DNA of 64,000 nucleotides, taken from positions 26,835 to 90,834 of the forward strand of contig CALKEQ010000001.1 in NCBI GenBank assembly GCA_938084905.1, read 5' to 3'. Source of the stretch: an uncultured bacterium (GTDB taxonomy: Bacteria; Desulfobacterota; Syntrophorhabdia; Syntrophorhabdales; JANXAF01). The notes under the pieces were generated by a model that did not search any database, was not told the DNA's origin, and was given only the letters and a program-made list of their open reading frames with translations. Position numbers and translations under genes: made by a program. Position 1 is the first letter of the stretch, and each line of letters starts with the position of its first letter. Positions 6,973 through 41,335 of this stretch are shown here, one piece after another.

Positions 6973-6986
6973 CCTGAGGAGGACAG

Positions 6987-7463: not shown

Positions 7464-7466
7464 GTT

Positions 7467-14108: not shown

Positions 14109-14111
14109 TAA

Positions 14112-14250: not shown

Positions 14251-14288
14251 ATTGTGAAATTTTTAATTAAGTGGCAAAGGAGGGCAAA

Positions 14289-15086: not shown

Positions 15087-15097
15087 AGGAGGAACAC

Positions 15098-16081: not shown

Positions 16082-16090
16082 GAGGCTATC

Positions 16091-19616: not shown

Positions 19617-19624
19617 GAGGGAAA

Positions 19625-26473: not shown

Positions 26474-28025
26474 AAAGAGGCTTGTGTACCTCTCCTCGGT
26501 TTTCGGAATTTTTTTCATCATCATCGGACTAACAGGATATTTCCAGGTATCGGTCATTAAAAGAAACATGTGGTCACTTTTAGAAAAGGAGGCTGAGCTT
26601 GCCTATGGACATTTAAAAAGGGAAATAGATATAAATCTTGAATACCTCGATCTTGCTGACCGGTCGGTATTTGATGTGACGCCAGGTTTCCTTACGGCCA
26701 TAACATACGAAGATGAAGTTATTGAGGATCTTGTTGAAAGGATTCTGGTTTCACCTGAAAAAAGTTTGAAGGAAATTTCTCCTTTGGGATATGCCATCTT
26801 CGACAAGAAAGGGAATTTGGTGGACAAAAGAGGATTAATCCAAGAAGATCAAAAATTGCTTCGTTCCCTTCTTTCCGGAAAAGAAAGGATAATAACAAAA
26901 CCTCGCTCACAAGGCGGTGAGAATCTTACTTTTGGACTTCGTCTAAATGATGGGGCAGTTATAGTTACATTCACAAAAGAACAGATGAAGGACTTAAAAA
27001 GAAAGTACGTTCTTAGAGAGATAGGAGAACAAGAAAAGGAAAGATTGAAGCTCGTTGGAATCAACGTCTACGACCCAGATGGAAATCCGTACTATATGTC
27101 CCAAAATCCGAACGGAAACTATTTCAGATTCAAAAAAATGATGGACAGTAGATACCTTCCAGGCTACTATTTGGAAGTGCTTCTTTCTAGAAGCTTACTA
27201 GACGAGGTTCTTCAAAGGACGATTCTCTACCTTCTTTTTACTCTATTACTTTTGATCACCTTTGGTGCACTTACCGGATACACAGTTTTCCTCGTGGAAA
27301 GAAAGCTGGAAAAAAGAATGGTACAATTTGAGAGAGAGATGGCTAAGAATGAGAGACTTCTCTCACTTGGTATGCTGTCATCAAGTATGGCTCACGAAAT
27401 CCGAAACCCCCTAAACGCAATATCACTTTCTCTGCAAAGGTTGAAAAGGGATTTTGTTCCAGCTGATTCGCGGAAGGAGGAGTATGAGCAATTTTTGAAC
27501 GTTGTTGGAAAGGAGATAACAAGGATAAACCGGATAGTAGAAGACTTTCTTTTGCTTTCCAGGCCAGAACCCCAATACGAACAGATTAATTTAAATGGCA
27601 TGCTTGACGAGATTTTCACGATCTTAAAGGAAAAAGCGGAAAGTAAGGGGGTAAGACTTCTAAATCTGGTAAATCCTGAGATAAACGTAACTGGTTATAA
27701 GGAAAAATTGAAGCAGGCTCTCTTCAACATAGTCCTTAATGGTATTGAGGCAATTGATGGTGAGGGGCAGGTCAAAGTCGAAGCTGAGGAATTTGATGAG
27801 AAGGTAAGGATCTCTGTAGAGGATAATGGATCAGGTATAAAGGAAGGTGAGATCGAAAGGATATTTGAATACCATTACACAACCAAGCAGAGGGGAGTTG
27901 GATTGGGGCTTCCGATTTCCTATATGATCGTGAAAGACCATGATGGGAAGATAGATGTTGAGAGCAAACCAGGAAAGGGAACAATCGTGAGAATCACAAT
28001 TCCAAAAAAGAGAGAAAAGAAATGA
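26463..28025 (+). CDS. membrane sensor histidine kinase (ZraS/AtoS-like)
   Basis: 520 aa. Two TM segments flank a periplasmic domain. H-box SSMAHEIRNPLN, N box and G boxes (DNGSGI, GLGL). Confidence 0.88.
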   Translation: MINKKRLVYLSSVFGIFFIIIGLTGYFQVSVIKRNMWSLLEKEAELAYGHLKREIDINLEYLDLADRSVFDVTPGFLTAITYEDEVIEDLVERILVSPEKSLKEISPLGYAIFDKKGNLVDKRGLIQEDQKLLRSLLSGKERIITKPRSQGGENLTFGLRLNDGAVIVTFTKEQMKDLKRKYVLREIGEQEKERLKLVGINVYDPDGNPYYMSQNPNGNYFRFKKMMDSRYLPGYYLEVLLSRSLLDEVLQRTILYLLFTLLLLITFGALTGYTVFLVERKLEKRMVQFEREMAKNERLLSLGMLSSSMAHEIRNPLNAISLSLQRLKRDFVPADSRKEEYEQFLNVVGKEITRINRIVEDFLLLSRPEPQYEQINLNGMLDEIFTILKEKAESKGVRLLNLVNPEINVTGYKEKLKQALFNIVLNGIEAIDGEGQVKVEAEEFDEKVRISVEDNGSGIKEGEIERIFEYHYTTKQRGVGLGLPISYMIVKDHDGKIDVESKPGKGTIVRITIPKKREKK

Positions 28026-29389
28026 CAGATCTCAACATACTTGTAGTCGAGGATGAGAAGTTTCAGAGGGAACTCCTCTCCGAATTGCTAAGAAAGGAAG
28101 GTTATTCTGTTTACGAGGCGGAGAACTCAAAGTGCGCTCTTGAGATCATGGAAAAGAGACCCATAGATATCTGTATTCTAGACCTTAAGCTGCCCGATAT
28201 GGACGGAGTAAGTTTACTCAGAGAAATGAAAAAAAGGGATCCAGAAGTAGACATCATAATCATAACCGCTTATGGAAGCATAGAAACTGCAATAGACGCG
28301 TTAAAATCGGGAGCTGAGGACTATTTGACCAAGCCTATAAGTTTCGAAGACCTTCTGATACGGCTAAAAAAGATAAAAAACAAGAGGACCTTACTTTCGG
28401 AAAATAAGATCCTGAAGGAGACACTCAAAGAGAGGCTAAAATCGGAGGATTTTATCTTTGCAAGTGAAAAAATGCAGGAAGTTGCGAGTCTTATAGTTAG
28501 AGTGGCAAAAACCGACTCCACATGTGTCATAGAAGGGGAAAGCGGGGTGGGTAAAGAGATCGTAGCTAACTTAATCCACGCGTATAGCGCCAGACGAGAA
28601 TTTCCCCTTGTAAAAGTCAACTGCGCCGCTATACCTGAGACTCTCCTTGAGAGTGAGCTTTTCGGGTACGAAAAGGGTGCCTTTACTGGCGCTTATCAGA
28701 GAAAGCCCGGAAAGTTTGAAATCGCAGATGGAGGAACAATTTTTCTGGACGAGATAGGAGAGGTTCCTCTCTCCGTTCAGGCCAAACTCTTAAGGGTAAT
28801 CCAGGAAAAAGAGTTCGAGCGTTTGGGGGGTCTCAAACCTGTGAAGGTAGACGTGAGAATCGTGGCTGCGACAAACAGGAGGCTTGATGAACTGGTAAAA
28901 AAAGGTATGTTTCGCGAGGATCTTTACTACAGGCTAAACGTACTGAGGATATTCATACCACCCTTAAGAGAGAGGAAGGAGGACATCCCGCTCTTAATTG
29001 ACCATTTTATAAAGAAGTACAGTCTCAGACACAAAAAGGAGATAAAAGGAATAACGAAGGAAGCGAGGGATCTGTTGATAAAATACGACTATCCTGGAAA
29101 TGTGAGAGAACTGGAGAATATCATAGAGCGGGCTGTAGTTCTTGCAAGAGGGGAATACATAACCACAGAGGATATAGCTGGCATCCCCTCCGGCCAAAGG
29201 GAAAGTGAGAGTTTATCCATGAGGGGTATGATCGAGTCCATAGAAAAGAGCATGATTCTGGAAGCTCTCGAAAAAAACAATTGGATCCGTACAAAAGCAG
29301 CCTCTTTCCTCGGTTTGAGCGAGAGGATGTTGAGGTACAAGATGAAGAAATACAAAATAGAGAAGGAAGACCTAGATAATCAACGATGA
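28022..29389 (+). CDS. sigma54-dependent response regulator (NtrC/ZraR family)
   Basis: Receiver domain, AAA+ domain with GESGVGKE and GAFTGA (EKGAFTGA), and a C-terminal HTH. Confidence 0.92.
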   Translation: MTDLNILVVEDEKFQRELLSELLRKEGYSVYEAENSKCALEIMEKRPIDICILDLKLPDMDGVSLLREMKKRDPEVDIIIITAYGSIETAIDALKSGAEDYLTKPISFEDLLIRLKKIKNKRTLLSENKILKETLKERLKSEDFIFASEKMQEVASLIVRVAKTDSTCVIEGESGVGKEIVANLIHAYSARREFPLVKVNCAAIPETLLESELFGYEKGAFTGAYQRKPGKFEIADGGTIFLDEIGEVPLSVQAKLLRVIQEKEFERLGGLKPVKVDVRIVAATNRRLDELVKKGMFREDLYYRLNVLRIFIPPLRERKEDIPLLIDHFIKKYSLRHKKEIKGITKEARDLLIKYDYPGNVRELENIIERAVVLARGEYITTEDIAGIPSGQRESESLSMRGMIESIEKSMILEALEKNNWIRTKAASFLGLSERMLRYKMKKYKIEKEDLDNQR

Positions 29390-29709
29390 GAGACCAGTTT
29401 TTTGTGATCTGGTGAATCGACCCTGAATTCAACAACAAGACCTTTTCTTCCCACCGCTTCGCGCGCGTCTTCCGCGTTTGCGTACACACCGTCGAAAGTG
29501 TAACAGTCGTAAAGTTCATAATAGTGATAGGCAACATAAACAAAATCGTCTTCTAATCTTTCCCCACAAAGCTCAACCCTCTTTATCTCCCATTGGCAGA
29601 ACAGGTCCTGGATTTTACTTGCATGTCCATAAGCCAGATCTGAACGTGAAAAGACACCAAATACTCCTCTTCCAAAAAAAGCGGAATCAATAAGAACATA
29701 AAGGTCCAT
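29380..29709 (-). CDS. hypothetical protein
   Basis: 109-aa ORF with plausible amino-acid composition and no recognisable motif. Its 3' end overlaps the regulator gene by 10 nt. Confidence 0.45.
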   Translation of the reverse strand: MDLYVLIDSAFFGRGVFGVFSRSDLAYGHASKIQDLFCQWEIKRVELCGERLEDDFVYVAYHYYELYDCYTFDGVYANAEDAREAVGRKGLVVEFRVDSPDHKKLVSHR

Positions 29710-29729
29710 GGTATAAGATTTTTATACCA
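29709..29729. promoter_or_regulatory. perfect 8-bp inverted repeat, candidate operator
   Basis: TGGTATAA-GATTT-TTATACCA in the divergent region between the hypothetical gene and the 2-oxoacid oxidoreductase operon. Confidence 0.4.
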
Positions 29730-29769
29730 TATAACATCTCAAAAAGGCCAGGTCCAATTTGTCCTGTAT

Positions 29770-30363
29770 TTGATAAAGGTGATTTTAGATTTTTTAATTG
29801 ACAGTTATGTGCAACTGGGGTACAGTATACAAGTGATAGAAATAAAGTTCACTGGAAGGGGCGGTAATGGCGTTGTCGTAGCCGCGCAGATGCTGGCAAA
29901 AGCTTTTTTCCTCAGCGGATTTTATCCTCAGTGCTTTTCGCTTTTTGGTGGGGAAAGAAGGGGGGCACCGGTAAAGAGTTTTTTAAGAGTCAACTCCAGT
30001 AAGATATTGCTCAAATGTGAGATAAAAAAAGCCGACCATCTAATTGTAATGGCAGCCGACCTCCTCCCTGAAGAACCGCTAACAGAGAACCTTAAGAACG
30101 GAGGATTAGTACTCATAAACGCTGACAGGCCTTTTAAGGTTGAAGGACCATTTAAAGTGGCATACGTTGATGCCCAAAAGATAGCAAGGGAATGTAGACT
30201 CGGTAACATAATAAATACAGCCATGCTCGGGGCCTACGCCCGAATCAGCGAGATTCTGTCACTCAACTATCTTGAGAAGGCAGTAAGAGAATACGTGCCT
30301 TCAAAGTTGGATGAAAATCTGAGAGCATTGAGAAGAGCTTATGAAGAAGCACGGACTTTTTGA
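29770..30363 (+). CDS. 2-oxoacid:ferredoxin oxidoreductase gamma subunit
   Basis: IEIKFTGRGGNGVVVAAQMLAKA is typical of PorG/KorC. The true start may be the GTG at 29833. Confidence 0.85.
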   Translation: MIKVILDFLIDSYVQLGYSIQVIEIKFTGRGGNGVVVAAQMLAKAFFLSGFYPQCFSLFGGERRGAPVKSFLRVNSSKILLKCEIKKADHLIVMAADLLPEEPLTENLKNGGLVLINADRPFKVEGPFKVAYVDAQKIARECRLGNIINTAMLGAYARISEILSLNYLEKAVREYVPSKLDENLRALRRAYEEARTF

Positions 30364-32062
30364 TGAGATAATGCCTGTATCAAAAACCCCCACAAGTGCA
30401 CATAAGACAGGGCTTTGGGGAAATCTGAAGCCTCTATACAAGGAAGCTACCAGTCCGTGCAGGGAATCCTGCCCACTTAATACAGATATTCCTCTCTTCA
30501 TCTTCCATATGAAGGAAAAAGATCTAAAAAGAGCAAAAGAGGAGATCCTCCTAGAGAATCCCTTTCCTGGAATATCCGGCAGGGTCTGCCACCACCCCTG
30601 TGAGGACGCCTGTAATAGAAGAGAACTTGATTCATCGGTCTCTGTTAGGGCCCTCGAGAGGTTTTTGGGAGATTACCCCTTCTACGAAGTTCCTGTATCT
30701 GAAAACAGAAGCCCAAAAAAAGTGGCAATAGTTGGCTCTGGTCCGGCAGGTCTTTCCTGTGCTTACTTTCTTTTGAGACTAGGACACAAGGTCACCATAT
30801 TCGAGAAGGAAAGTGATGTGGGTGGTCTTCTACTATTCGGCATTCCTCCGTACAGACTACCAAAAAATGTACTTCGGAGGGATCTACATGTTCTTTTAGC
30901 CCTCAAACCTCAAATAAGACTAAATTTTGAACTGACGGGAGATAATATTTTCTCCCTTCTTGGGTCCTTTGACTATGTGTTTCTCGCTCCAGGCATGGGA
31001 GAATCGAAAAGGCTACAAGTTGCAGGTGAAAATAAAAAGGGGGTTTACTACGGAGTTCAATTCCTAAAGGAAGTAAAGTCGATTGAGGATGAAATAAGAA
31101 GAGCAATAGTTATCGGCGGTGGGGATGTTGCAATGGACGTGGCAAGAACGATAAGAAGACTTAAGCCCGATGCAAAGGTAAGTATCTTTGCACCTGAGAA
31201 AGTGGAAGACCTACCTGCATTAAGAGAAAACGTCGCGGAGGCCCTCGAAGAAGGGATAGATTTAATCTGCGGGTATCTGCCCCTTTATTTTGAAGGAAAA
31301 AAGAGGATTGAAGCGGTAATTTTTCAAAGGACTGAGGTTAAAAAGGATGAAAAAACTGGAAAGTTCCTGTTCATTCCCCTAAATGAAAAAAGGGAGGAGG
31401 CCGCAGATATGGCGGTTGTTTGTATAGGACAGAAGCCTCTGGAGGCAAGTAAACTTAGGGAGATTGCGGAAGAGGAGGGGTATATTCTGGTTGACCATAG
31501 AGGAAGAACTAAAATCGAAAGGATCTATGCGGGAGGTGACATCATTGGACAGAAAGCCACTGTTTCTTTGGCATCATCCTCCGGAAAAAGAGCGGCCATA
31601 TGCATAGATATGGATGCAAAACGCCTCGATTTGCCACTAGATGAGCTCTATGTGGGAAGCAAAGGGTTTCTGTCATTTAAAAAATACTTGAAGCTCGAGA
31701 AAAAGGAGACTAGGAAGGTGGTAGGATTTTCTGACCTTAACACGCTACCTCATGAAAAGATCCCCAGGGTAGATGCAAAAAAAGAGGAACCTCTTGAGAG
31801 ATTAAAGGATTTTCGCGAGATCGGATACACCTATACAAAGGAAGAGGCGGAAAAGGAATCGGATAGATGCCTCTCATGTGGACAGTGTATGAGGTGTAAT
31901 CTTTGCTTCTATCTATGCCCAGATGTCTCTATAAGGAGAAAAGCAGATGGGCTATACGAGGTGGACGAAGATTACTGCAAGTCCTGCGGAGTATGTGCAA
32001 AAACGTGTCCCTCAAATGTAATAGAAATGGTAGAAAAAGATGGCGGAGCTTTTATCAGGTAA
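30341..32062 (+). CDS. fusion: GltD/NfnB-like FAD NAD(P)H oxidoreductase + 2x[4Fe-4S] delta-ferredoxin subunit of 2-oxoacid:ferredoxin oxidoreductase
   Basis: 573 aa. NPFPGISGRVCHHPCEDAC, KVAIVGSGPAGL, GIPPYRLPK, VIGGGDVAMDVAR. C-terminal CLSCGQCMRCNLC...CKSCGVCAKTCP. An alternative start is the ATG at 30371. Confidence 0.85.
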   Translation: MKKHGLFDEIMPVSKTPTSAHKTGLWGNLKPLYKEATSPCRESCPLNTDIPLFIFHMKEKDLKRAKEEILLENPFPGISGRVCHHPCEDACNRRELDSSVSVRALERFLGDYPFYEVPVSENRSPKKVAIVGSGPAGLSCAYFLLRLGHKVTIFEKESDVGGLLLFGIPPYRLPKNVLRRDLHVLLALKPQIRLNFELTGDNIFSLLGSFDYVFLAPGMGESKRLQVAGENKKGVYYGVQFLKEVKSIEDEIRRAIVIGGGDVAMDVARTIRRLKPDAKVSIFAPEKVEDLPALRENVAEALEEGIDLICGYLPLYFEGKKRIEAVIFQRTEVKKDEKTGKFLFIPLNEKREEAADMAVVCIGQKPLEASKLREIAEEEGYILVDHRGRTKIERIYAGGDIIGQKATVSLASSSGKRAAICIDMDAKRLDLPLDELYVGSKGFLSFKKYLKLEKKETRKVVGFSDLNTLPHEKIPRVDAKKEEPLERLKDFREIGYTYTKEEAEKESDRCLSCGQCMRCNLCFYLCPDVSIRRKADGLYEVDEDYCKSCGVCAKTCPSNVIEMVEKDGGAFIR

Positions 32063-33197
32063 TCACGCCATAGCAGAGGCTGTGAGACTCTCAAAGGTCG
32101 ATTTTGTTGCCGCTTATCCCATTACTCCTCAGACACCAATTTATGAAAAGATAGCTGAGATGATCTCGGAGGGAAAAATGTGCGGCCAGATGATGAGAGC
32201 GGAATCTGAGCACTCCGCAATGGCTGCCTGCATATCCGCGTCCCTTGCCGGCGTGAGAGTATTTACCGCCAGTTCTTCCCAGGGAATAGCGTACATGCAC
32301 GAGATGCTCCATTTTGCATCAGGTTGCAGGGTTCCAATTGTAATGGCGTGTGTAAACAGGGTCGTTTCTGCTCCGTGGGCCTTTGGAACTGATCAAACCG
32401 ATACCCTCTCTCAGAGGGATACTGGATGGATACAGCTCTACTGTGAGGACGGCCAAGAGGCACTAGATACGGTGATTATGGCTTACAAGGTCTCGGAAAC
32501 CATATTTCTTCCTGTAATGGTTATAATAGATGGGTTTTACACTTCCCATTTCATAGAACCTGTTGAGATTCCGGAACAAACACTCATCGATCAGTACCTA
32601 CCGAAAAGGAATCTGCCAAACAGATTCGATCTTTCAAATCCTGCTTTTTTGCAGAATGTTGTTGATCCTCCTAACTATACCCGGTTTAAAAAGAGGCAAT
32701 TTGACGACACTTTAAAAGCCAGAAGGTTGCTAATTGAGGCGGACAAAGAATTTGGCGAGCTTTTCGGAAGATCGTATGGAGTCGTTGAGCCATTAGAACT
32801 CGCTGATGCAGAAATAGGGATAGTAACAGCAGGTTCCATGACGTCTTGTGCGAGGATTGCGGTTAGGACTTTAAGGAGTAAAGGAATAAAAGCAGGGCTT
32901 TTAAAAATAAAGCTTTTTAGACCATTCCCCTACAATGAGGTGGCAAGATATTTGGGGACTCTTGAAAAAGTGATCGTTATAGATAGAAACGTTTCAAGTG
33001 GAAAGGGAGGGATATTCTGCGACGAGCTTAAGGCTTCAATGTACAACCTAAAGAATAGGCCGGAGATTTACGGTTTTATTGGAGGGCTCTGCGGGGAGGA
33101 TCTGCCCCCTGAAAAATTTGAGAAAATAACACTCTCCGTTCTTAGGGCAAAAAAACCTTGGGATGTACCAAAATGGATACACAGGATGAGATTTTAA
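32040..33197 (+). CDS. 2-oxoacid:ferredoxin oxidoreductase alpha subunit
   Basis: 385 aa. GNHAIAEAVRLSKVDFVAAYPITPQT is the PorA/KorA N-terminal signature. Confidence 0.9.
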   Translation: MAELLSGNHAIAEAVRLSKVDFVAAYPITPQTPIYEKIAEMISEGKMCGQMMRAESEHSAMAACISASLAGVRVFTASSSQGIAYMHEMLHFASGCRVPIVMACVNRVVSAPWAFGTDQTDTLSQRDTGWIQLYCEDGQEALDTVIMAYKVSETIFLPVMVIIDGFYTSHFIEPVEIPEQTLIDQYLPKRNLPNRFDLSNPAFLQNVVDPPNYTRFKKRQFDDTLKARRLLIEADKEFGELFGRSYGVVEPLELADAEIGIVTAGSMTSCARIAVRTLRSKGIKAGLLKIKLFRPFPYNEVARYLGTLEKVIVIDRNVSSGKGGIFCDELKASMYNLKNRPEIYGFIGGLCGEDLPPEKFEKITLSVLRAKKPWDVPKWIHRMRF

Positions 33198-34045
33198 GAA
33201 AAGGACATTACGCATGCCCGGGGTGCGGTTTGGCCATAGCCATGAGACTCGTTCTCCGCGCCGTCGGGAGAAAGGCAATAGCTGTGATTGTACCATCGTG
33301 CGAGGCAGTAATAAGTGGCACGTATCCCTTTTCCGCACTGGAAGTACCTGCATTTCACTCCGCCTTTGCAATTGCAGCACCAACTGCCGCTGGCATTTCC
33401 CGCGCTCTAAAGATAAGAAAGGAGACTGACGTAACAGTTCTCGCATTTGCCGGTGATGGCGGAACTTACGATATAGGCTTACAGTCTCTCTCAGGCGCTG
33501 CTGAAAGAAATGAAGATTTTATCTATGTTTGCCTTGACAATGAAGCCTACATGAACACTGGAATACAGGCGAGCTCCTCAACTCCTCCCTTGTCCTGGAC
33601 AGTAACTACACCGAAAGGAAAGGTAGAGAAAAAGAAGAGGCTTATGGAAATAATCGTTGCTCATTCGGTTCCCTATGCTGCCACAGCCACGATTGGTTAT
33701 CCTCAGGACCTCATGGAAAAGGTAAAAAGGGCAAAGGAGTTTCAAGGAACAAAATTCATACATGTTCTGACACCCTGCCCTACAGGATGGAAGATGAAGG
33801 AGGAACTAACAGGAGTTATTGCTATGCTTGCCTTCGAAACGAAGGTCTTCCCCTTGTACGAGGTTATAAACGGGGAAATCTACAGAATCACAAAGGTTCC
33901 GAAGGGACTTCCGGTTAGGGATTACCTCTCAATCCAGGGTAGATTTTCCCACCTCAGTGAAGATGAAATAGAAAAAATCCAACAGGAAGTGGACATAGAA
34001 TGGGAAAGGCTCATTTACCTAGCTAAAAGACATGAAAAGGTTTAG
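33158..34045 (+). CDS. 2-oxoacid:ferredoxin oxidoreductase beta subunit (TPP-binding)
   Basis: 295 aa. CPGCG motif and TPP motif GDGGTYDIG...N. Confidence 0.9.
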   Translation: MGCTKMDTQDEILRKGHYACPGCGLAIAMRLVLRAVGRKAIAVIVPSCEAVISGTYPFSALEVPAFHSAFAIAAPTAAGISRALKIRKETDVTVLAFAGDGGTYDIGLQSLSGAAERNEDFIYVCLDNEAYMNTGIQASSSTPPLSWTVTTPKGKVEKKKRLMEIIVAHSVPYAATATIGYPQDLMEKVKRAKEFQGTKFIHVLTPCPTGWKMKEELTGVIAMLAFETKVFPLYEVINGEIYRITKVPKGLPVRDYLSIQGRFSHLSEDEIEKIQQEVDIEWERLIYLAKRHEKV

Positions 34046-34688
34046 CATCACGGACACGGAATCGATTAGAAGGAAGGTTTACAAAAAGATAAGAGAGATG
34101 ATACTTAAGGGAGAGCTTGCCCAGGGAGAAAGGATCTACGAGGAAAAAATCGCAAAAAAAATAGGGGTCTCAAGGACACCCGTAAGGGAAGCACTTCACG
34201 CACTCGAGCATGAAGGACTGCTTATTTCAAAGCCAAGAAGCGGGTACATTGTAAAGCCAATGAGTAAGGAGGAAGTTTACGAAATATGCGAATTGAGAAA
34301 AGTTGTGGAGGGTCTCGGATTAAGGTGGGCAATAGATAGGAATAGGGAGAAGCTCATTTCTGAGCTTAAAAAAAACATAGAGCTCTCCGAAATAAAACTC
34401 AAAAAGGGTGATATCAGATCTTTCATCAATTTGGATGCTAAATTTCACGAAACAATAGCGAGACTCAGTGGGAGTAAAAGACTTCTTGAGCTTGCAATGA
34501 CCTTAAGACGACATATGTTGAGGTATAGGATAGAAAGTATATACCTTAAGGACAACGTGGAGAGAGCAATAGAAGGGCACAAAAGAATCGTGGACGCTAT
34601 AGAGAACGGTAGGAATGATAAGGTAGACGAAGCCCTAATAGCCCACATAGATACGTCGAGGGAGGACATTTTGAAGTATGCCTTCTGA
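34032..34688 (+). CDS. GntR-family transcriptional regulator (FadR/FCD subfamily)
   Basis: 218 aa. wHTH KIGVSRTPVREAL plus a helical FCD-like C-terminal domain. Confidence 0.88.
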   Translation: MKRFSITDTESIRRKVYKKIREMILKGELAQGERIYEEKIAKKIGVSRTPVREALHALEHEGLLISKPRSGYIVKPMSKEEVYEICELRKVVEGLGLRWAIDRNREKLISELKKNIELSEIKLKKGDIRSFINLDAKFHETIARLSGSKRLLELAMTLRRHMLRYRIESIYLKDNVERAIEGHKRIVDAIENGRNDKVDEALIAHIDTSREDILKYAF

Positions 34689-35187
34689 TCGCCACGCGAA
34701 GGGACTTTTCGACAGGATTTTGAATTTCTTCTTCTATTTCTCTTGCGCAATCGTGGCTTTTATTGCCATTTCTGTCTGCTACAATGTTTTCATGAGGTAC
34801 TTTCTCAAGTCACCGCCACTATGGGTGGTACAGGCAACAGAATATTCCCTTTTGTGGATTGTCTTTCTTTCTGCTTCTTACCTTTTGAGGGAAGGTGGGC
34901 ATATCTCCATTGACTTAATTTACGGGAGTCTGAAGGGTAAAAAAAAGGTGATTGTTGACCTTTTGATCAACTTTCTTTGCTCTTTCTTCATGGGGATTTT
35001 GACCCTTTTCAGTTCTTTTTATTTCTTTGAGTGTCTTTCCTTAAAAGTGACGGATGTGAGGACGTACACAGTACCGAAGTGGATACTTTTTTCGGTTATC
35101 CCATTCGGTTCTTTCTTTTTGACTGTGCAATTTTTAAGACTCTTCTTTAAGGAAGTGAAAAGCCTGTGGAGTGGTACCATACGCTAG
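34678..35187 (+). CDS. TRAP transporter small permease (DctQ)
   Basis: 169 aa with four TM segments, immediately upstream of dctM. Confidence 0.82.
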   Translation: MPSDRHAKGLFDRILNFFFYFSCAIVAFIAISVCYNVFMRYFLKSPPLWVVQATEYSLLWIVFLSASYLLREGGHISIDLIYGSLKGKKKVIVDLLINFLCSFFMGILTLFSSFYFFECLSLKVTDVRTYTVPKWILFSVIPFGSFFLTVQFLRLFFKEVKSLWSGTIR

Positions 35188-36479
35188 TAATCCTTTTTTC
35201 CTCTCTTGTTTTCCTTTTTCTTCTCGGCGTACCTGTCGCATTCTCCTTCCTAATTGTGAATCTTGTAGCAGCTTACCTTTTAATGGGCGGAGTAAACGGG
35301 ATAATGGGCCTAGTTGCTGGTGTTTTTACATCGATTACTACTTTTGCACTCGTTCCTGTGCCACTGTTTGTCCTCATGGGTTCCATTATATTCCACAGCG
35401 GACTTGGATTTGACGCTATAAACGTCCTTGACAAATGGCTAGGGAAAATCAAGGGCAGACTATCCATACTAGCCATTCTCATGGGCATAATCATCGGCGC
35501 TCTAAGTGGTTCGACTATTGCCACTTGTGCTCTTCTGGGAACAACATTGCTTCCGGAAATGCTGAAAAGGGGCTACAGTAAGCGTATGAGTTTAGGGCCA
35601 ATTATGGGGATCGGAACCGTTGATGCTCTCATACCTCCAAATGCGCTTACAGTCGTTCTTGCCAGTCTCGCTAAGGTAGATGTTGGGAAGTTGCTAATAG
35701 CAGGGATAATTCCCGGGATTTTTATGTCCGCACTTTATCTTTTGTACGTACTTCTTTTCGTCCATCTAAAACCCCACGAGGCACCGAGCTACGATGTTGA
35801 GAAAGTGCATTTTTCGGAAAAGATCAAACTCACTTTTAAATATTTGGTCCCACTCGGTTTCATAGTTTTTATGGTCATAGGGCTCATTTTTTTGGGAGTC
35901 GCCACACCTACGGAGGCGGCCGCAACAGGTGTTCTTGGCTCCTTTTTCCTTGCTGCTATATACGGGAAGATGGACTCTCGGGTCCTTAAAAGATCGATTT
36001 CCGACTCGGCCAAGATAACGACTATGATTTTTATGATAATTATCGTTTCTGACACTTACAGTGCAATTCTAGCTTTTACTGGTACCGCATCAAAATTGAT
36101 CGAATTTGTCACGCAGATGCAGGTTTCCCCTTACACGGTTCTAATCGCTATGATGGTTACCATCGTCATACTCGGTTGCTTCATGGAAACTGTTGCGATG
36201 ATGATGATTACGGTTCCAATATTTATGCCTGTTGCTCAGGCCCTTGGATTTGATCCTCTCTGGTTCTGTGTCCTCATGCTCATAAACATGGAAACTGGTT
36301 TACTTACCCCACCCTTCGGAGTAACTCTCTTTGTAATGAGAGGTGTGAGTCCTAAAGAGATCACGATGGCGGACATATGGAAGGCAGCTATTCCTTTCGC
36401 GCTAGTGGACTACCTATGTTTGACGTTTGTCATTCTCGTTCCCAAAATTGCAACTTATCTCCCCTCCATTATGAAATGA
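35166..36479 (+). CDS. TRAP transporter large permease (DctM)
   Basis: 437 aa polytopic protein, paralogous to 7467-8771. Confidence 0.9.
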   Translation: MEWYHTLVILFSSLVFLFLLGVPVAFSFLIVNLVAAYLLMGGVNGIMGLVAGVFTSITTFALVPVPLFVLMGSIIFHSGLGFDAINVLDKWLGKIKGRLSILAILMGIIIGALSGSTIATCALLGTTLLPEMLKRGYSKRMSLGPIMGIGTVDALIPPNALTVVLASLAKVDVGKLLIAGIIPGIFMSALYLLYVLLFVHLKPHEAPSYDVEKVHFSEKIKLTFKYLVPLGFIVFMVIGLIFLGVATPTEAAATGVLGSFFLAAIYGKMDSRVLKRSISDSAKITTMIFMIIIVSDTYSAILAFTGTASKLIEFVTQMQVSPYTVLIAMMVTIVILGCFMETVAMMMITVPIFMPVAQALGFDPLWFCVLMLINMETGLLTPPFGVTLFVMRGVSPKEITMADIWKAAIPFALVDYLCLTFVILVPKIATYLPSIMK

Positions 36480-36514
36480 GAGGGGAGAAATTAATAAAAA
36501 GGAGGTGTAAAGCC

Positions 36515-37504
36515 ATGTTTAAAAAGATTTCCCCTTTGGTAGTTCTTCTTTTGATTCTTTGGCCAATCTTTTCTGTTTGGGGCCAAGGTATAACTCTAAA
36601 AGCGGTCACGGCCTGGCCAAAAAATGCGACGGATAACAGGGCCTTTTTCATCTTCACAGAGCTCGTGGAAGAAATGGTCTCTAAAAAATACCCGGGACAG
36701 CTGAAAATCAATTACGTTGGAGGACCGGAAACAATAAAAAGTACAGACCAGGCTCAGGCAGTTCAGAGGGGAATTGTGGATATGGCTTTTTTAACAACCG
36801 CATATTACCTCTCAATTCTACCGGAGGTGGACGCTATTAAGCTGTCAGAGTTTTCTGCTCCAGAAGAGAGACAAAGAGGAGCTACCAAATTCATCAACGA
36901 GCTTCACGAGAACAAACTTGGTATCACTTACCTTGGAAGGCTTGGACTGGACATAAAGTTCTATCTGTATTTAAAAAAACCCATTCGGACAGCAGATCTT
37001 AAGGGCTTAAACATAAGGGTTTCGCCTATGTACCTTCAGGCAATAAAAGGTCTCGGCGGAAACCCTGTTGTCATTCCTCCCACGGACGTGTTCCTTGCAC
37101 TGGAGAGGGGTGTTGTGGATGGATATTGCTGGCCGGAAGTCGGAATAAGGGATTGGGGCTGGGAAAAGCATACAAAGTACATAGTAGAGCCTGGGTTTTA
37201 CAGGGTTCCCAATCCTTTAATCATGAATAGGAGGGTCTTTTCCTCACTTCCCAAACACTTAAGGGATCTGCTCGTCGAGGCAACAATTGAAGCTGAAAAG
37301 AGAACGCACAAGCTTTTCCAGGACCTTGCTAAAAAGGAAAGACCAGAGCTTGAAAAAATCGGTATACAGGTAATAGAACTGCCCCCACCCGAGAAGGAGA
37401 AGTTTCTGAAGGTCGCTTACGAAGAGGGCTGGAAAGATATAATCCAGAAAGTGCCGAAGGAAGGAGCCGAGCTTAAAAAATATCTCACCAGGGAGGGAAA
37501 ATGA
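36515..37504 (+). CDS. TRAP transporter substrate-binding protein (DctP family)
   Basis: ATG at 36515 with an AAGGAGG RBS, and signal peptide MFKKISPLVVLLLILWPIF. The track start at 36377 overlaps dctM and is rejected. Confidence 0.85.
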   Translation: MFKKISPLVVLLLILWPIFSVWGQGITLKAVTAWPKNATDNRAFFIFTELVEEMVSKKYPGQLKINYVGGPETIKSTDQAQAVQRGIVDMAFLTTAYYLSILPEVDAIKLSEFSAPEERQRGATKFINELHENKLGITYLGRLGLDIKFYLYLKKPIRTADLKGLNIRVSPMYLQAIKGLGGNPVVIPPTDVFLALERGVVDGYCWPEVGIRDWGWEKHTKYIVEPGFYRVPNPLIMNRRVFSSLPKHLRDLLVEATIEAEKRTHKLFQDLAKKERPELEKIGIQVIELPPPEKEKFLKVAYEEGWKDIIQKVPKEGAELKKYLTREGK

Positions 37505-38793
37505 TAAAAAGATCCTACATAAACTATGAGGACAGGAGGGTGTATTTCACCCTCCCTGACCAATGGGATGTGGAGGTGATAGAAGGTAAAGCACCACCTG
37601 AGCCGTGTCAGGACCAAGACAAAGAAATAAGAAGAGCACTTGATAATCCGATTAGATCGAGAAAGCTAGAAGAGCTCTCAAAATACGCATCAGAAGTGGC
37701 CATACTGTTTGATGACTCCCAGCGAAACACTCCATGTGAGACCATTCTGCCCCATCTGATTGAAAGGTTAAACGAAGGGGGCGTACCAGACAAAAGAATA
37801 AGGCTTGTCTGTGCAGTCGGCACGCACCCAGTAGCGTCAGATGAGGATCTAAGGAAAAGGGTCGGGGAAGCGATCTATGGAAGGTTCAAGGGCGCTATTT
37901 TTTCTCATGACCCGTTTGGCGAGCACGTATTCATTGGAAAAACCAGAAGAGGAACTCCGGTAGAGATAAATAAGATTGTCCACGAAGCTGATCTCGTAAT
38001 CGGCGTAGGAACATGCGCCCCCCATCCCTCATCTGGATACGGAGGAGGCTATAAGATCCTTATGCCAGGTGTTACCTCCTACCGAACAACTGAAAAACAT
38101 CATATTGTTTTTCTAAGGAACAAACGGAGCATGGTCGGGATGTTGAGGGGAAATCCTTTCTTCGAAGACATAAGGGATATAGGGGAGATGGCCAACCTCA
38201 TGTTCAAAGTAGACGTTATAATGGATGAAAAAAAAAGACTGATTAAAGTTTTCGCCGGTCATCCCTATTTTGAGCATGTGGCCGCATCCAGCTATGCGGA
38301 AATGCTACAGGAAGTAAAAATAAATGGCCTTTCTGAAGTAACTATAATTTCAGCCCATCCTCTTGAAATAGGGGTCCAGGCTACCAAGGCATTGCTTCTT
38401 GCCCGGCATGTGACGAAAAGGGGAGGAATCATAATATGGGTTGCTCCCCATAAAAAGCCGGGAGGCATTCGTCCACTTCTTGAAGAAATGGAAAAACCCC
38501 TCACCGCTGATCAATGGCACAGAATACTTCTTGAAAAGGGAATCCCCGAACATCTTAAGAATCTCGGTGTCTCCTATGTTATGCAGGTAGTTCACTTCAA
38601 AGAAATAGCTGAAAGATTCACAGTTATCCACGTTACCGACGGATTGGAAGAAGAGGAGGTCCGAAAGATGGGCTTTGTTTATGCAAGTACAATGGAGGAG
38701 GCATTGGACATGGCAAAAAGGCGAATACCTCAAGGCAAGGTCCGCATCTTTCCTTCAGGAGGCACCATCCTTCCAAAAATAACTCACCCATAG
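37501..38793 (+). CDS. larA: LarA-family nickel-pincer-cofactor-dependent 2-hydroxyacid racemase/epimerase
   Basis: 430 aa. DDSQRNTP, AVGTHP and APHPSSGYGGGYKILMPG...KHH resemble the LarA catalytic His, NPN-tethering Lys and Ni-ligand His regions. Confidence 0.75.
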   Translation: MIKRSYINYEDRRVYFTLPDQWDVEVIEGKAPPEPCQDQDKEIRRALDNPIRSRKLEELSKYASEVAILFDDSQRNTPCETILPHLIERLNEGGVPDKRIRLVCAVGTHPVASDEDLRKRVGEAIYGRFKGAIFSHDPFGEHVFIGKTRRGTPVEINKIVHEADLVIGVGTCAPHPSSGYGGGYKILMPGVTSYRTTEKHHIVFLRNKRSMVGMLRGNPFFEDIRDIGEMANLMFKVDVIMDEKKRLIKVFAGHPYFEHVAASSYAEMLQEVKINGLSEVTIISAHPLEIGVQATKALLLARHVTKRGGIIIWVAPHKKPGGIRPLLEEMEKPLTADQWHRILLEKGIPEHLKNLGVSYVMQVVHFKEIAERFTVIHVTDGLEEEEVRKMGFVYASTMEEALDMAKRRIPQGKVRIFPSGGTILPKITHP

Positions 38794-39967: not shown

Positions 39968-41335
39968 CTATGCATCTGTCTTTTCAAGAAGGGTGCATAA
40001 TTCTACACCATCTTCCGGAAAGAAAGCCACCCTCGAATATACTCCATCTTCTTTTTTTGAAAACTTCGTTTTTCCATCGTAGTTCTCGTAGATACCCTTA
40101 AAAAGGGTGTACTCTATCATTCTGACTAGATTCTTCACAGCCTGCGGGTCTCTTCTCGGCAAAATCACGTAAAACCTGCCTCCTCCTTTTCTTGCAACAA
40201 AGGATGCCTCCCCAGATGTATGTTTTATAAGATGATAAGCCCTTCTTATGAAGTCGTCGGTAAAATCGAGCCCCTTTTCTCGATTGAAAACGTTAAGCTT
40301 GAGAAGTTTCACCATTATTAGACCGAACTTTGTTTTCTTCTTTATCAAATCCTCTCCTATTCTGAGAAAATAATGAAACTGTAAAGCACCAGTCAAAGGA
40401 TCAAGACCCTTTAGCCTTTCTAGGTACTCCTTCGACCATAAAGCAGAGTAGTAAAGTGAAAGCATAACCGAAATGTCTCTTAAGGTTCTGATGGACTCCT
40501 CTGAAAGGGGATGGTCTCCCAAGGAAGCAAAACCTGCTACTCCAAACACAACATCATCTATGAAAAGGGGAAAACCAAAGAATTGCCTTGCCTGAAATGT
40601 CTCTCCAAGGTAAATGAGGGGTTTCTCCTTTAGGTATCCAGTATTGAAAGGAAGGAGAAGCTCACTTCCCGATTCTATTACGCTTGAGGCAATACTTTCG
40701 CCAATTGGGCAGGTCCTTGCCAAACATTCAGTTGCTTTGAGACCCACTGCATCCTTTATTTTCAGTTTTCCTTTGTCCTCCATTCCTATAAAACACATAT
40801 CCGCACCCGAAATCCTCAAAGTCTCATTTAGGACTTCCTGAATGGTTACCCTCCCTGAGAGAAGATCCTTGAAGATGGAGAATATGAAGTGTTTTGTGTT
40901 CAACTCATTCAACCTTTCCTCAAAATCCGAACCTTTATCATCCTGACCTATTTCCTGAAGAATTAAAGGGACGAAGCTTTTTAAGTTTTTCTTCTCTTTA
41001 TCCGTGAATGAGTACTTCTTTTTGCTGTCGATGCATATAACCCCGTTCCCTTCAACTGGATAACCCATGAAGGATTTTATATCCTCATCCCTCTCATAAT
41101 ACCCAAGCGTTTCAGTTTCTTTGTCGAAATTGGGTATTATAAGGGGTTCTCTGTGTTTGACCACCCAGCCGGGTAGTGTTTCATCGATTGGAAGCAACCT
41201 ACTTCCGGAGAAGTTCTTAGAAAGTGTGAGGAAAGACATGCATCTTAAAAAGTCGCCTTCCCTCTTGTAGACTGCGACTGTGTAAGCCTCATAAAAGTTG
41301 AAAATGATCTGACATATGTCTTCCAGTCTCTTCAT
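39968..41335 (-). CDS. GAF-domain protein with degenerate GGDEF domain
   Basis: 455 aa with two GAF-like regions. C-terminal DPLTGAL...ARKGGGRFYVIL carries GGGRF in place of GG[DE]EF. Confidence 0.65.
   Translation of the reverse strand: MKRLEDICQIIFNFYEAYTVAVYKREGDFLRCMSFLTLSKNFSGSRLLPIDETLPGWVVKHREPLIIPNFDKETETLGYYERDEDIKSFMGYPVEGNGVICIDSKKKYSFTDKEKKNLKSFVPLILQEIGQDDKGSDFEERLNELNTKHFIFSIFKDLLSGRVTIQEVLNETLRISGADMCFIGMEDKGKLKIKDAVGLKATECLARTCPIGESIASSVIESGSELLLPFNTGYLKEKPLIYLGETFQARQFFGFPLFIDDVVFGVAGFASLGDHPLSEESIRTLRDISVMLSLYYSALWSKEYLERLKGLDPLTGALQFHYFLRIGEDLIKKKTKFGLIMVKLLKLNVFNREKGLDFTDDFIRRAYHLIKHTSGEASFVARKGGGRFYVILPRRDPQAVKNLVRMIEYTLFKGIYENYDGKTKFSKKEDGVYSRVAFFPEDGVELCTLLEKTDA

Follow-up and report, generated by a model that had tools for sequence, protein, structure and literature searches.

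The nine-gene cluster found in the 64,000-nucleotide stretch of uncultured bacterial DNA analyzed here (the window) is a genuine operon that is kept in dozens of uncultured anaerobes. Its component parts are already familiar, and their joint occurrence in one operon appears to be undescribed. The first-pass annotation had known of no such combination, and none of the 25 groups in the published table of LarA genomic contexts was associated with oxidoreductase COGs. We consider it probable that the cluster is a single substrate-inducible operon through which a monocarboxylic 2-hydroxy or 2-oxo acid is catabolized whose side chain is hydrophobic and carries no charge, and aromatic acids of this kind are our leading guess for the substrate class. 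The features are as follows.

29798 to 29826, plus strand: sigma-70-type promoter, with -35 TTGACA at 29798-29803, a 17-nt spacer, and -10 TACAGT at 29821-29826.
29816 to 29830, plus strand: candidate operator TGGGGTACAGTATAC for the GntR/FCD regulator, overlapping the -10 hexamer.
29833 to 30363, plus strand: porG, gamma subunit, 176 aa if started at GTG 29833, with TTG 29770 as an in-frame alternative.
30341 to 32062, plus strand: gltD::porD, 573-aa fusion, with Pfam and NCBIfam matches.
32040 to 33197, plus strand: porA, alpha subunit, 385 aa, with POR_N and PFOR_II.
33173 to 34045, plus strand: porB, beta subunit, 290 aa if started at ATG 33173, with TTG 33158 as an in-frame alternative.
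34032 to 34688, plus strand: gntR, GntR/FCD regulator, 218 aa, with GntR and FCD domains.
34678 to 35187, plus strand: dctQ, TRAP small membrane subunit (PF04290, E value of 3E-27).
35166 to 36479, plus strand: dctM, TRAP large membrane subunit (PF06808, E value of 5E-78; TIGR00786, 307 bits versus a cutoff of 268).
36515 to 37504, plus strand: dctP, TRAP periplasmic solute-binding protein, 329 aa, with a signal peptide (PF03480).
37501 to 38793, plus strand: larA homologue, 430 aa, with Lar_N and LarA_C domains.

The order of the nine co-directional ORFs (porG, gltD::porD, porA, porB, gntR, dctQ, dctM, dctP, and larA) is as first listed, and their domain content agrees with the names given to them. 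The junctions overlap by 23, 23, 40, 14, 11, and 22 nt as first annotated. The sole gap is the 35 nt between dctM and dctP, after which dctP opens at ATG 36515 with a signal peptide and meets larA in a 4-nt ATGA overlap. All of these values were reproduced, and only the porA/porB overlap is more likely to be 25 nt than 40, since orthologous PorB proteins, whose N-termini begin MDT, have their first residue where the window has ATG 33173. The operon start had been placed at 29709, but this position is not in the porG frame and is where an ORF of 109 aa on the minus strand (29380-29709) starts. TTG 29770 opens the frame of porG, and the N-termini of orthologues of 176 to 188 aa align with GTG 29833. 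This alignment makes GTG 29833 the most likely start and gives an operon span of 29833-38793.

The promoter matched 10 of 12 consensus positions and was the top promoter-like match in the region, and the TTGACA-N17/18-TACAGT arrangement upstream of the first gene was kept in most orthologous loci. Only 6 nt separate the -10 hexamer from the porG start codon (a distance of 7 nt counted from the last hexamer base), so the operon mRNA is probably leaderless; leaderless translation starting at GTG is unusual, which counts against the main reading. The 15-base TGGGGTACAGTATAC is separated from the first start codon by 2 nt in the window type and by up to about 4 nt in others. It was identical in L001, L002, and L003, and in relatives it forms the perfect palindrome GGGGTAC-A-GTACCCC. 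With at most two mismatches, the motif had 41 matches in 1.37 Mb of orthologous loci, whereas 30 permuted motifs averaged 1.5 matches and reached 7 at most. Roughly 30 of these 41 matches preceded GntR, PorG, or LarA by no more than 100 nt, and the motif co-occurred with the GntR orthologue across loci. We read 29816-29830 as a candidate GntR operator on a leaderless operon, at which the operon-encoded GntR/FCD protein is probably the repressor. Within the cluster there was no excess over shuffled sequence of promoter-like sites (11 versus 14.3) or terminator-like sites (12 versus 10.5), and the one conserved promoter/operator stands before the first gene.

Conservation of the linkage was assessed in 83 non-redundant loci carrying a LarA orthologue at 45 to 72% identity. 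A GltD::PorD-type oxidoreductase was present in 43 and a PadEFGHI-like five-subunit oxidoreductase instead in 4, so that 47 of the 83 showed the linkage in differing gene orders, which exceeds chance. A GntR orthologue was found in 41 and an orthologous TRAP transporter in 35. Among the loci with full flanks (n = 39), the oxidoreductase was present in 23 and both oxidoreductase and TRAP in 18; the roughly 40% without the oxidoreductase count against the main reading. Gene order was shuffled between loci (divergent or co-directional, with larA first or mid-cluster), and larA was often immediately beside porB. One locus, L089, had the nine-gene order of the window with a fusion protein at merely 40% identity. 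In another, L017, orthologous TRAP, GntR, and LarA were kept together with a five-subunit enzyme best matching NCBIfam PadE/F/G/H/I. The host MAGs are mainly Syntrophorhabdus, Syntrophaceae, and Desulfatiglandales. The association of LarA homologues with an oxidoreductase and a TRAP system is thus conserved over many species, and this, together with the lack of internal promoters or terminators above the shuffled level, supports the route of uptake, stereo-inversion, and oxidative decarboxylation that had been proposed.

Regarding the oxidoreductase, PorG matched PF01558 (E value of 1.8E-34) and TIGR02175 (166 bits, above the 81-bit cutoff). PorA contains POR_N (E value of 9E-64) and PFOR_II (E value of 2E-25), with a YPITP motif visible in the translation; its top NCBIfam matches were PorA_Arch (386 bits) and Vor alpha (349 bits), all under the equivalog cutoffs. 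PorB is a TPP-binding, [4Fe-4S] beta subunit with a TPP_enzyme_C match, scoring 374 bits against the Vor beta model NF008818 and 355 bits against the PorB model, each versus a cutoff of 405. The catalytic subunits were nearest to Por/Vor models and not Pad models, which counts against the main reading. From N to C terminus, GltD::PorD comprises a 2x[4Fe-4S] domain (Fer4_20), an FAD- and NAD(P)H-binding flavoprotein (Pyr_redox_2), and a PorD-type 2x[4Fe-4S] delta domain (residues 512-566). Its full-length match to NF009410 was 445 bits, under the 516-bit cutoff, and residues 514-566 matched TIGR02179 PorD. The nearest solved chains were NfnA/NfnB-type and Stn-type GltD modules, with the PFOR delta subunit 9bt4_G closest to residues 515-565, and the Cys, FAD, and NAD(P) motifs were invariant among 20 homologues. 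Because delta is fused to a GltD/NfnB-like flavoprotein, whose nearest structures are of the NADPH-binding NfnB type, the domain architecture suggests that the electrons go to NAD(P)+ and not to free ferredoxin. Of the 2-oxoacid:ferredoxin oxidoreductase originally annotated, the subunits and the GltD fusion stand; it is the acceptor that the fusion calls into question.

The larA product is predicted to be a nickel-pincer-nucleotide-dependent 2-hydroxyacid racemase. Its catalytic and NPN positions (H109, H175, K185, H201, R75, D72, Q293, and K296) are conserved and were invariant in all loci. The window has no larB, larC, or larE, which counts against the main reading in that a supply of the cofactor is assumed. 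Every curated LarA-family model was under its cutoff, the best being LarAH6 (271 versus 500). The specificity positions across loci were P176, S/I/V177, Y359, and V/I360. These fit none of the published signatures for lactate (F,F,W,E/Q), malate (H/Q,K), or 2-hydroxyglutarate (Y,F,H/Q,T), and since pocket and gene neighborhoods alike point to a hydrophobic, possibly aromatic, substrate, those three acids were rejected as first choices. In the same study, F or Y at the W358 position goes with hydrophobic 2-hydroxyacid racemases (PMC11770544), and judged by its residues the pocket fits the hydrophobic-substrate type.

In the proposed pathway, one sigma-70 promoter would drive the operon under a palindromic operator over the -10 box, with the GntR/FCD protein as presumed repressor, and the DctPQM TRAP system would bring the acid into the cell. 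The LarA homologue with its nickel-pincer nucleotide would convert the 2-hydroxy acid between its D and L forms, making both enantiomers usable, and a stereospecific 2-hydroxyacid dehydrogenase encoded elsewhere would produce the 2-oxo acid. The TPP/[4Fe-4S] four-subunit enzyme (PorG, PorA, PorB, and the delta domain) would then convert 2-oxo acid and CoA to acyl-CoA and CO2. Electrons would pass along the internal cluster chain of the delta/GltD fusion to FAD and on to NAD(P)+, bypassing free ferredoxin. As the first-pass annotation had noticed, the operon has no linking dehydrogenase; none was found among the scanned window ORFs, which were those with 150 aa or more, nor recurrently in the orthologous clusters. 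The step from hydroxyacid to oxoacid is therefore assumed, and the route is not self-contained as had been claimed. The first candidate substrates would be mandelate/phenylglyoxylate, with benzoyl-CoA as the product, or aryl-lactate/aryl-pyruvate, with aryl-acetyl-CoA as the product, and the second would be aliphatic branched or short 2-hydroxy acids.

By far the nearest solved structure to DctP (AF2 model pLDDT of 88.7) was Bpro_4736 of Polaromonas sp. JS666 (4mnc/4mni; E value of 3E-54 versus 1E-15 for the next), with 34% identity and a TM-score of 0.83 to 0.92. The title of this structure entry presumably ends "with bound benzoyl formate." A plasmid relative, the pBAM2 bbdB TRAP system, also at 34% identity, adjoins an aromatic ring-hydroxylating dioxygenase and has been proposed to take up 2,6-dichlorobenzoate (PMC8460812). 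These closest structural and sequence relatives of DctP are both tied to aromatic carboxylates, pBAM2 by gene context and that proposal and Bpro_4736 by the presumed ligand, but at just 34% identity they belong to aerobic Proteobacteria and to unrelated pathways. In a sister LarA clade of Acidobacteriota, larA adjoins a 2-hydroxyacyl-CoA dehydratase, its activator, and a family III CoA-transferase. Together with the host taxa, these are hints of an aromatic or hydrophobic substrate.

Some neighbors are instead suggestive of branched-chain or small acids: class IV aminotransferases (family c27) occur in five loci, in L038 directly downstream of larA, and in L002, L004, L005, and L076 the cluster adjoins genes for sCache_2 sensors or chemoreceptors. 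Domains of the sCache_2 type usually sense small carboxylates. The same scheme could serve 2-hydroxyisovalerate, 2-hydroxyisocaproate, or 2-hydroxybutyrate through an NAD(P)-linked, VOR-like 2-oxoisovalerate-type enzyme, in keeping with these aminotransferases, with the Vor beta subfamily as the best match of PorB, and with a hydrophobic LarA pocket of the kind whose characterized racemases use such acids. More distant GltD-fused oxidoreductases also adjoin an aminotransferase and glutamate dehydrogenase. We nevertheless judge this rather unlikely, given the four loci with a Pad-like replacement, the ties of the nearest TRAP relatives to aromatic acids, and the UbiD-type decarboxylase neighbors in a few loci, none of which is decisive.

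Utilization of D/L-lactate appears improbable. In this scheme lactate would enter through the TRAP system, LarA would be a true lactate racemase, an unlinked lactate dehydrogenase would form pyruvate, and the oxidoreductase, acting as a pyruvate:NAD(P)+ oxidoreductase, would make acetyl-CoA. The operon would then correspond to the lct or luo lactate clusters, with a TRAP system and an oxidoreductase as its variant parts. PorA and PorB do score nearly as well on pyruvate-synthase as on Vor models, the sCache_2 genes would suit it, lactate-binding TRAP proteins exist (2zzv was among the DctP structural matches), and for lactate, clusters of racemase, regulator, and transporter are well documented (PMC8914356). 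However, LarA scored 222 bits versus a cutoff of 460 on the lactate-racemase equivalog and is missing the F,F,W,E/Q signature, DctP shares 22 to 23% identity with the lactate-binding protein versus 34% with Bpro_4736, and a Pad-like enzyme takes the oxidoreductase's place in four loci. The hosts include Syntrophorhabdus, whose cultured member is not known to grow on anything but aromatic compounds.

It is highly improbable that the LarA homologue is itself a hydride shuttle or dehydrogenase, giving the 2-oxo acid to the oxidoreductase and the hydride from the nickel-pincer cofactor to another acceptor. In favor of this, none of the 47 oxidoreductase-linked clusters has a 2-hydroxyacid dehydrogenase, larA is frequently next to porB, and intermolecular hydride transfer has been shown for an NPN enzyme, though on an unrelated aldo-keto-reductase scaffold (PMC13524815). 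Against it, both racemase-typical catalytic histidines are invariant, all activities reported in the consulted LarA-family papers are racemization or epimerization with none showing oxidase-like product release, and a dehydrogenase encoded elsewhere is simpler.

Catabolism of a hydrophobic 2-hydroxy or 2-oxo acid, the reading we prefer, has its closest parallels in the following known systems and in the DctP relatives described above. The lct cluster of Acetobacterium woodii and Anaerobutyricum (lctA regulator, lactate permease, D-iLDH, EtfAB, and LarA-type lactate racemase; PMC8914356) likewise groups a regulator, a transporter, and a LarA-family racemase, with which an anaerobe catabolizes both enantiomers of a 2-hydroxy acid. 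In contrast, the window operon is without the dehydrogenase/Etf module, has a TRAP system in place of the lactate permease, adds a downstream 2-oxoacid oxidoreductase, and encodes a LarA without the lactate-racemase signature. Characterized LarA homologues include the lactate racemase LarA1, the malate racemases Mar1 and Mar2, Hgr, GntE, and the hydrophobic LarAH10/52/66 (PMC7583248, PMC11770544). The window LarA shares their fold, the catalytic His pair, and the Lys/His/Arg for the nickel-pincer nucleotide, and has the Tyr of the hydrophobic class at the W358 position; it differs in forming a distinct clade (178 bits to Mar2, under every curated cutoff) whose oxidoreductase, GntR, and TRAP context is absent from the 25-group table. 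PorABDG and VorABDG, the best family matches, share the alpha, beta, and gamma subunits, the delta dicluster domain, and the YPITP and GDG TPP motifs, whereas the window delta domain is found at the C terminus of an NAD(P)-binding flavoprotein of 573 aa with NF009410-type architecture. Since the window oxidoreductase misses all equivalog cutoffs, the family models assign it no substrate. The NADH-dependent phenylglyoxylate dehydrogenase PadEFGHI, the subunits of which are named by the NCBIfam equivalogs NF045762-NF045766, comes from Azoarcus/Aromatoleum. The window enzyme has four genes rather than five, a GltD/NfnB-type flavoprotein fused to delta rather than a separate PadH, and a beta subunit without the N-terminal Fe-S extension, and all Pad models were far under cutoff. 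PadEFGHI is nonetheless a TPP/Fe-S 2-oxoacid oxidoreductase of the same Por/Vor lineage that reduces NAD+ through its own flavoprotein, and a Pad-like enzyme sits in the same place in four orthologous clusters.

The operon comprises nine ORFs, all co-directional on the forward strand, whose products were identified from matches to Pfam and NCBIfam profiles. The gene order, strand and content given in the first-pass annotation were recovered with matching domains and, judged from these, every part of the operon belongs to a known family. The GltD::PorD fusion also matched the NF009410 architecture over its full length, with 445 bits, which is below the 516-bit cut-off.

Operon, the ORF preceding it, and domains of the operon products
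29380-29709 (-): ORF of 109 aa, weak match to DUF7336
29833-38793 (+): porG, gltD::porD, porA, porB, gntR, dctQ, dctM, dctP, larA
PorG: PF01558; TIGR02175, 166 bits
GltD::PorD, 573 aa: Fer4_20 at 37-112, Pyr_redox_2 at 126-414, PorD-type dicluster at 512-566
PorA: POR_N and PFOR_II
PorB: TPP_enzyme_C
GntR: N-terminal winged helix (GntR, PF00392) and C-terminal FCD (PF07729)
DctQ, DctM, DctP: PF04290, PF06808 and PF03480, respectively
LarA: Lar_N (PF09861, E value of 6.8e-54) and LarA_C (PF21113, E value of 4.5e-9), together spanning the full length

The overlaps of 23, 23, 14, 11, 22 and 4 nt and the 35-nt gap between genes were as described, and the porA/porB overlap, given as 40 nt, is more likely 25 nt since PorB orthologues begin at the position of ATG 33173. 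The start placed at 29709 was in error: it lies in a different frame from porG and is the start codon of the reverse-strand 109-aa ORF, which explains the wrong coordinate. The porG frame opens at TTG 29770, and its orthologues of 176-188 aa start at the residue of GTG 29833. By position and length, a 109-122-aa gene in a like position accompanies a sigma-54 response regulator, and not the oxidoreductase cluster, in three orthologous loci (L001, L003 and L004).

A protein search with LarA returned relatives in two groups, a small one at 63-72% identity and a very large one at approximately 50%. The same nine genes were present in L001 and L004, the cluster without TRAP genes was present in L002 and L003, and in L005, from a Syntrophaceae MAG, larA was divergent from gntR-porG-gltD::porD-porA-porB. 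Taking one genome per species, a scan produced 80 loci, every one from a MAG, with hosts mainly from Syntrophorhabdus, Syntrophaceae and other Thermodesulfobacteriota and some from Acidobacteriota. For the linkage counts, every ORF of each locus was scored against the nine proteins of the window.

Linkage of larA to the other operon genes
83 non-redundant loci: fusion-type oxidoreductase 43, five-subunit Pad-like oxidoreductase 4, GntR orthologue 41, orthologous TRAP 35, oxidoreductase plus TRAP 29
39 loci with 9 kb or more on each side: fusion-type 23, Pad-like 0, GntR 21, TRAP 20, oxidoreductase plus TRAP 18

The comparison of LarA neighbourhoods that had been proposed thus placed an oxidoreductase in 47 and an orthologous TRAP transporter in 35 of the 83 loci, and the cluster holds together as a conserved module in no fewer than 47 loci. 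Gene order varies widely across these loci, which favours functional coupling over inherited synteny, and the persistence of linkage despite such extensive shuffling led us to reject two unrelated neighbouring operons. The identical nine-gene arrangement was found even in L089, though its fusion protein is just 40% identical. Fusions at 38-39% identity were also found without LarA, adjoining an aminotransferase and glutamate dehydrogenase, so the fusion architecture is wider than its link to LarA.

The next commonest neighbour families in the 83 loci were a secreted 223-aa protein (20 loci), a 207-aa molybdopterin-domain protein (12 loci) and a DUF4388 protein (11 loci). The secreted protein has no Pfam match; in 20 orthologous clusters it recurs where the TRAP genes end, and the window is without it. 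A DUF4388/HTH protein is frequently the next one along, with a CoA-transferase A/B pair following in L005 and L076. The remaining neighbours were heterogeneous (efflux ABC/HlyD, URO-D-like, methylmalonyl-CoA mutase, hydantoinase, nitrogenase-like and SufBD).

Examples of the secreted 223-aa protein
L039, 1020-1691 (-)
L005, 3520-4197
L017, 735-1403

No internal promoters or terminators splitting the cluster were detected beyond the frequency in shuffled sequence (promoter-like matches, 11 versus 14.3; terminator-like matches, 12 versus 10.5), in line with the single operon originally described. The best promoter match was directly 5' of porG, with TTGACA at 29798, a 17-nt spacer and TACAGT ending at 29826; GTG 29833 starts 6 nt past this -10 hexamer (7 nt from its last base). 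The 15-mer TGGGGTACAGTATAC (29816-29830) was identical among the aligned close relatives L001-L004, within surrounding non-coding DNA that has diverged. With at most 2 mismatches allowed, the 1.37 Mb of orthologous loci contained 41 copies of the element, against an average of 1.5 and at most 7 for 30 permuted motifs, and about 30 of the 41 copies lay no more than 100 nt upstream of GntR, PorG or LarA. Its distance to the start codon was 2 nt for porG in window-type loci and typically 4 nt for GntR in the more distant Syntrophaceae/Syntrophorhabdus-type loci. In the latter the element reads as a perfect palindrome, GGGGTAC-A-GTACCCC, with a TTGACA lying ahead of it, 17-18 nt from TACAGT, and the conserved palindrome co-occurs with the GntR gene. 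Its domains and this palindromic candidate operator place the cluster regulator in the FadR/FCD subfamily of the GntR family. We propose a sigma-70 promoter in which the -10 box overlaps the putative operator (TGGGGTACAGTAYNC) of the cluster's own GntR/FCD protein, and a start codon at the predicted transcription start, which would yield a leaderless mRNA. The operon would then be autoregulated and is probably leaderless, where both GntR binding to the element and the 5' end of the mRNA are inferred. Scanned against Rfam, the window gave only two tRNA matches, with neither a riboswitch nor a leader RNA 5' of the operon.

An operator-like element, TGGGGTACAGTACCC, at 19548 also precedes a second PorA/PorB pair in L038, suggesting that the regulon may reach past one operon. 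Sigma-54 control by the kinase and regulator encoded upstream (26463-29389) was rejected: there is no TGGCAC-N5-TTGC-like site in 29389-29833, and the pair is located elsewhere, unlinked to the cluster, in L003 and L004. In relatives, the upstream trio that includes this pair lies beyond a conserved mreB block, on the opposite side, making control of the operon unlikely.

Features named in connection with transcription, and a gene pair near mreB
L038, 17076-19560 (-): second PorA/PorB pair
14035-14186 (+): two adjacent tRNA genes
26039-29389 (+): periplasmic LTXXQ/Metal_resist protein, histidine kinase, NtrC-type sigma-54 activator
41332-42470 (-): TtuA-like PP-loop 2-thiouridine synthetase, then a 67-aa ORF with a counterpart in relatives annotated ThiS/SAMP2-like; the pair is syntenic downstream of mreB

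The window LarA aligned over its full length to 6d6z and 5huq. [quoted passage not shown] The first five were invariant in 29 homologues and all eight in the 83 loci. Domains and catalytic residues together place it in the LarA superfamily of NPN-dependent 2-hydroxyacid racemases and epimerases. Every curated LarA-family model scored below its cut-off. A malate racemase of the LarAH6 or LarAH5 type was rejected (271 versus 500 and 233 versus 462 bits), with Y and V instead of H/Q and K at LarA1 positions 358 and 359. A lactate racemase sensu stricto (NF033504) was rejected with 222 bits against a 460-bit cut-off and no F, F, W, E/Q at LarA1 positions 175, 176, 358 and 359. Specificity has been predicted from F175, F176, W358 and T359 of LarA1, with F or Y at the W358 position associated with racemases of hydrophobic 2-hydroxyacids (Urdiain-Arraiza et al., PMC11770544). 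At these positions the window LarA has P176, S177 (I/V in most relatives), Y359, which is of this F/Y type, and V360 (I in most), a set that fits no lactate, malate, 2-hydroxyglutarate or gluconate signature. These residues support an uncharacterised LarA clade with a hydrophobic pocket. Of the cofactor biosynthesis genes larB, larC and larE, none was found in the window when essentially all of its ORFs of 150 aa or longer were scanned.

The nearest LarA clade, at 45% identity, was found in two Acidobacteriota loci. From its gene content, that arrangement pairs a racemase of the same kind with another way of consuming a 2-hydroxy acid.

Acidobacteriota loci of the sister clade
L078, 2028-6831, and L080, 1822-12583: LarA adjoining a 2-hydroxyacyl-CoA dehydratase (HGD-D), a BcrAD/BadFG-type activator and a family III CoA-transferase

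The occurrence together of alpha (POR_N and PFOR_II), beta, gamma and delta modules, with the YPITP motif in alpha and GDG in beta visible in the translations, marks a four-subunit Por/Vor-type enzyme, although all Por/Vor equivalog cut-offs were missed (PorA_Arch, 386 versus 550; Vor beta, 374 versus 405; PorB, 355 versus 405). The last 55 residues of the fusion match the PFOR delta subunit, and its GltD-like part is nearest to the NADPH-binding subunits, with FAD and two [4Fe-4S] clusters, of Nfn- and Stn-type enzymes. Across 20 homologues there was no variation in the Cys ligands, in G132-x-G134-x-x-G137 (the FAD motif) or in G259-G-G261-x-x-A264 (the second dinucleotide motif). Such fusion of delta to an FAD- and NAD(P)H-binding module suggests NAD(P)+ over free ferredoxin as the acceptor, and the oxidoreductase is probably NAD(P)-linked. 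The operon encodes the GltD-like module and no PyrK-like ([2Fe-2S] plus FAD) small subunit of an NfnAB-type transhydrogenase, from which we infer that two electrons are simply delivered to NAD(P)+, without bifurcation. Searching with the 573-aa fusion returned more than 7,000 proteins at an E value of at most 1e-40, a count that takes matches regardless of the delta domain; no relevant literature on the fusion was found. Three ways of joining a GltD-like flavoprotein to a 2-oxoacid oxidoreductase stand side by side in L087.

Oxidoreductase types in L087, 3994-18079, flanked by aminotransferase and glutamate dehydrogenase genes
separate GltD plus PorG::PorD
GltD::PorD
997-aa protein with POR_N, TPP-binding and GltD-like parts

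The NADH-dependent phenylglyoxylate dehydrogenase (PadEFGHI) is a known precedent for an NAD-linked enzyme in the Por/Vor lineage. It has five subunits, with a separate PadH flavoprotein and an N-terminal Fe-S extension on PadI, whereas the window enzyme is encoded by four genes. Identity with PadEFGHI was rejected on scores (PadE, 104 versus 300; PadG, 286 versus 700; PadI, 225 versus 700), the PadI match spanning model positions 146-439 only. In L011, L013, L017 and L081 a five-subunit enzyme takes the place of the fusion enzyme, with best matches to PadE/F/G/H/I just under the cut-offs; the LarAs linked to it carry the same specificity signature, and L017 retains the orthologous TRAP, GntR and LarA.

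A DctP with a signal peptide, together with DctQ and DctM, indicates a DctP-type TRAP transporter, and the DctP model gave TM-scores of 0.7-0.9 against TRAP binding proteins. By a wide margin, the nearest solved TRAP binding protein was Bpro_4736 of Polaromonas (4mnc/4mni; E value of 3e-54 versus 1e-15 for the next; 34% identity; TM-score up to 0.92), an entry that we take to be a benzoylformate complex. Arg168 of DctP is invariant within an NIRVSP motif and would be the counterpart of the carboxylate-binding Arg147 of SiaP. Plasmid-borne relatives (30-36% identity) include the pBAM2 TRAP of Aminobacter MSH1, which adjoins an aromatic ring-hydroxylating dioxygenase and has been proposed to import 2,6-dichlorobenzoate (PMC8460812). 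Among the orthologous loci, UbiD-type decarboxylases occur in a few, a class IV aminotransferase family in 5 (directly downstream of larA in L038), and sCache_2 sensors flank a few clusters. The nearness of DctP to Bpro_4736, the pBAM2 relative, the host range, the UbiD neighbours and the dehydratase context of the sister clade favour an aromatic or hydrophobic acid. Catalytic subunits more Por/Vor-like than Pad-like, the class IV aminotransferase and the sCache_2 sensors point away from an aromatic one; the UbiD, aminotransferase, CoA-transferase and sCache_2 neighbours are weak hints. Taken as a class, an acid with an uncharged, hydrophobic side chain is moderately supported. A second TRAP system is encoded elsewhere in the window.

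Second TRAP system and the gene before it
4801-5778 (+): FMN-reductase::low-molecular-weight phosphatase fusion
5871-8771 (+): TRAP system in P-Q-M order

As the first-pass annotation had noted, the dehydrogenase linking the hydroxyacid to the oxoacid is absent from the operon; none was found among window ORFs of 150 aa or longer (essentially all scanned), nor is there one in the neighbour families that recur across the 83 loci, 47 of them oxidoreductase-linked. The simplest explanation is that it is encoded elsewhere. The 47 oxidoreductase-linked clusters may instead have no dehydrogenase because none is needed, if the LarA-clade enzyme performed a net oxidation, in which the adjacent oxidoreductase would receive the 2-oxo acid and another acceptor, perhaps the GltD-type flavoprotein, would take the nickel-pincer hydride. 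We regard this non-canonical oxidative role as unlikely, indeed as a long shot; if true, it would be the first LarA-fold dehydrogenase or hydride shuttle. In a milder version, a LarA-type mandelate racemase would feed an NAD(P)-linked phenylglyoxylate oxidoreductase, amounting, if true, to an anaerobic mandelate pathway.

The uptake, stereo-inversion and oxidative decarboxylation route first put forward is supported and sharpened, and, save for the start coordinate, the underlying observation was real. About half of the LarA superfamily is still without an assigned substrate (PMC11770544), and the context here is unusually informative and widely conserved, the transporter, the regulator with its recognisable operator and the oxidoreductase being three independent handles on the LarA substrate. 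The cluster also gives a physiological setting to a very common Por/Vor architecture with delta fused to a GltD/NfnB-like flavoprotein, for which no characterisation was found. If the enzyme delivers electrons to NAD(P)+ in place of ferredoxin, models of syntrophic and sulfate-reducing Thermodesulfobacteriota would need different redox accounting; if the substrate is aromatic, the cluster would give methanogenic consortia an unrecognised way into the benzoyl-CoA pathway. The operon is of value chiefly as a well-defined and testable means of reaching a new LarA substrate and of learning what GltD-fused 2-oxoacid oxidoreductases do.

We found no description of the combination of oxidoreductase, GntR, TRAP and LarA in the literature, in agreement with the earlier impression; a published context table of 25 LarA groups has no oxidoreductase COGs and ties TRAP genes solely to a sugar-acid group. 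Among described systems, the closest analogue is the lct lactate cluster (PMC8914356), in which an NAD-independent lactate dehydrogenase and EtfAB stand beside a racemase, permease and regulator. The operon, in contrast, has neither dehydrogenase nor Etf; the Etf genes of the window (14271-16081) are 13 kb away, within a formate dehydrogenase cluster.

Formate dehydrogenase cluster of the window
14271-22321 (+): EtfB, EtfA, NuoE-like [2Fe-2S] protein, 1016-aa NuoF-like::GltD-like fusion and formate dehydrogenase alpha, its frame split by an in-frame TGA (20687-20689) in ...CARL-U-HAPTV...

That cluster looks like an NAD(P)/ferredoxin-linked formate dehydrogenase complex, possibly electron-bifurcating, in which the TGA is likely a selenocysteine codon. 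Relative to lct, what the operon adds is the 2-oxoacid oxidoreductase and the TRAP transporter.
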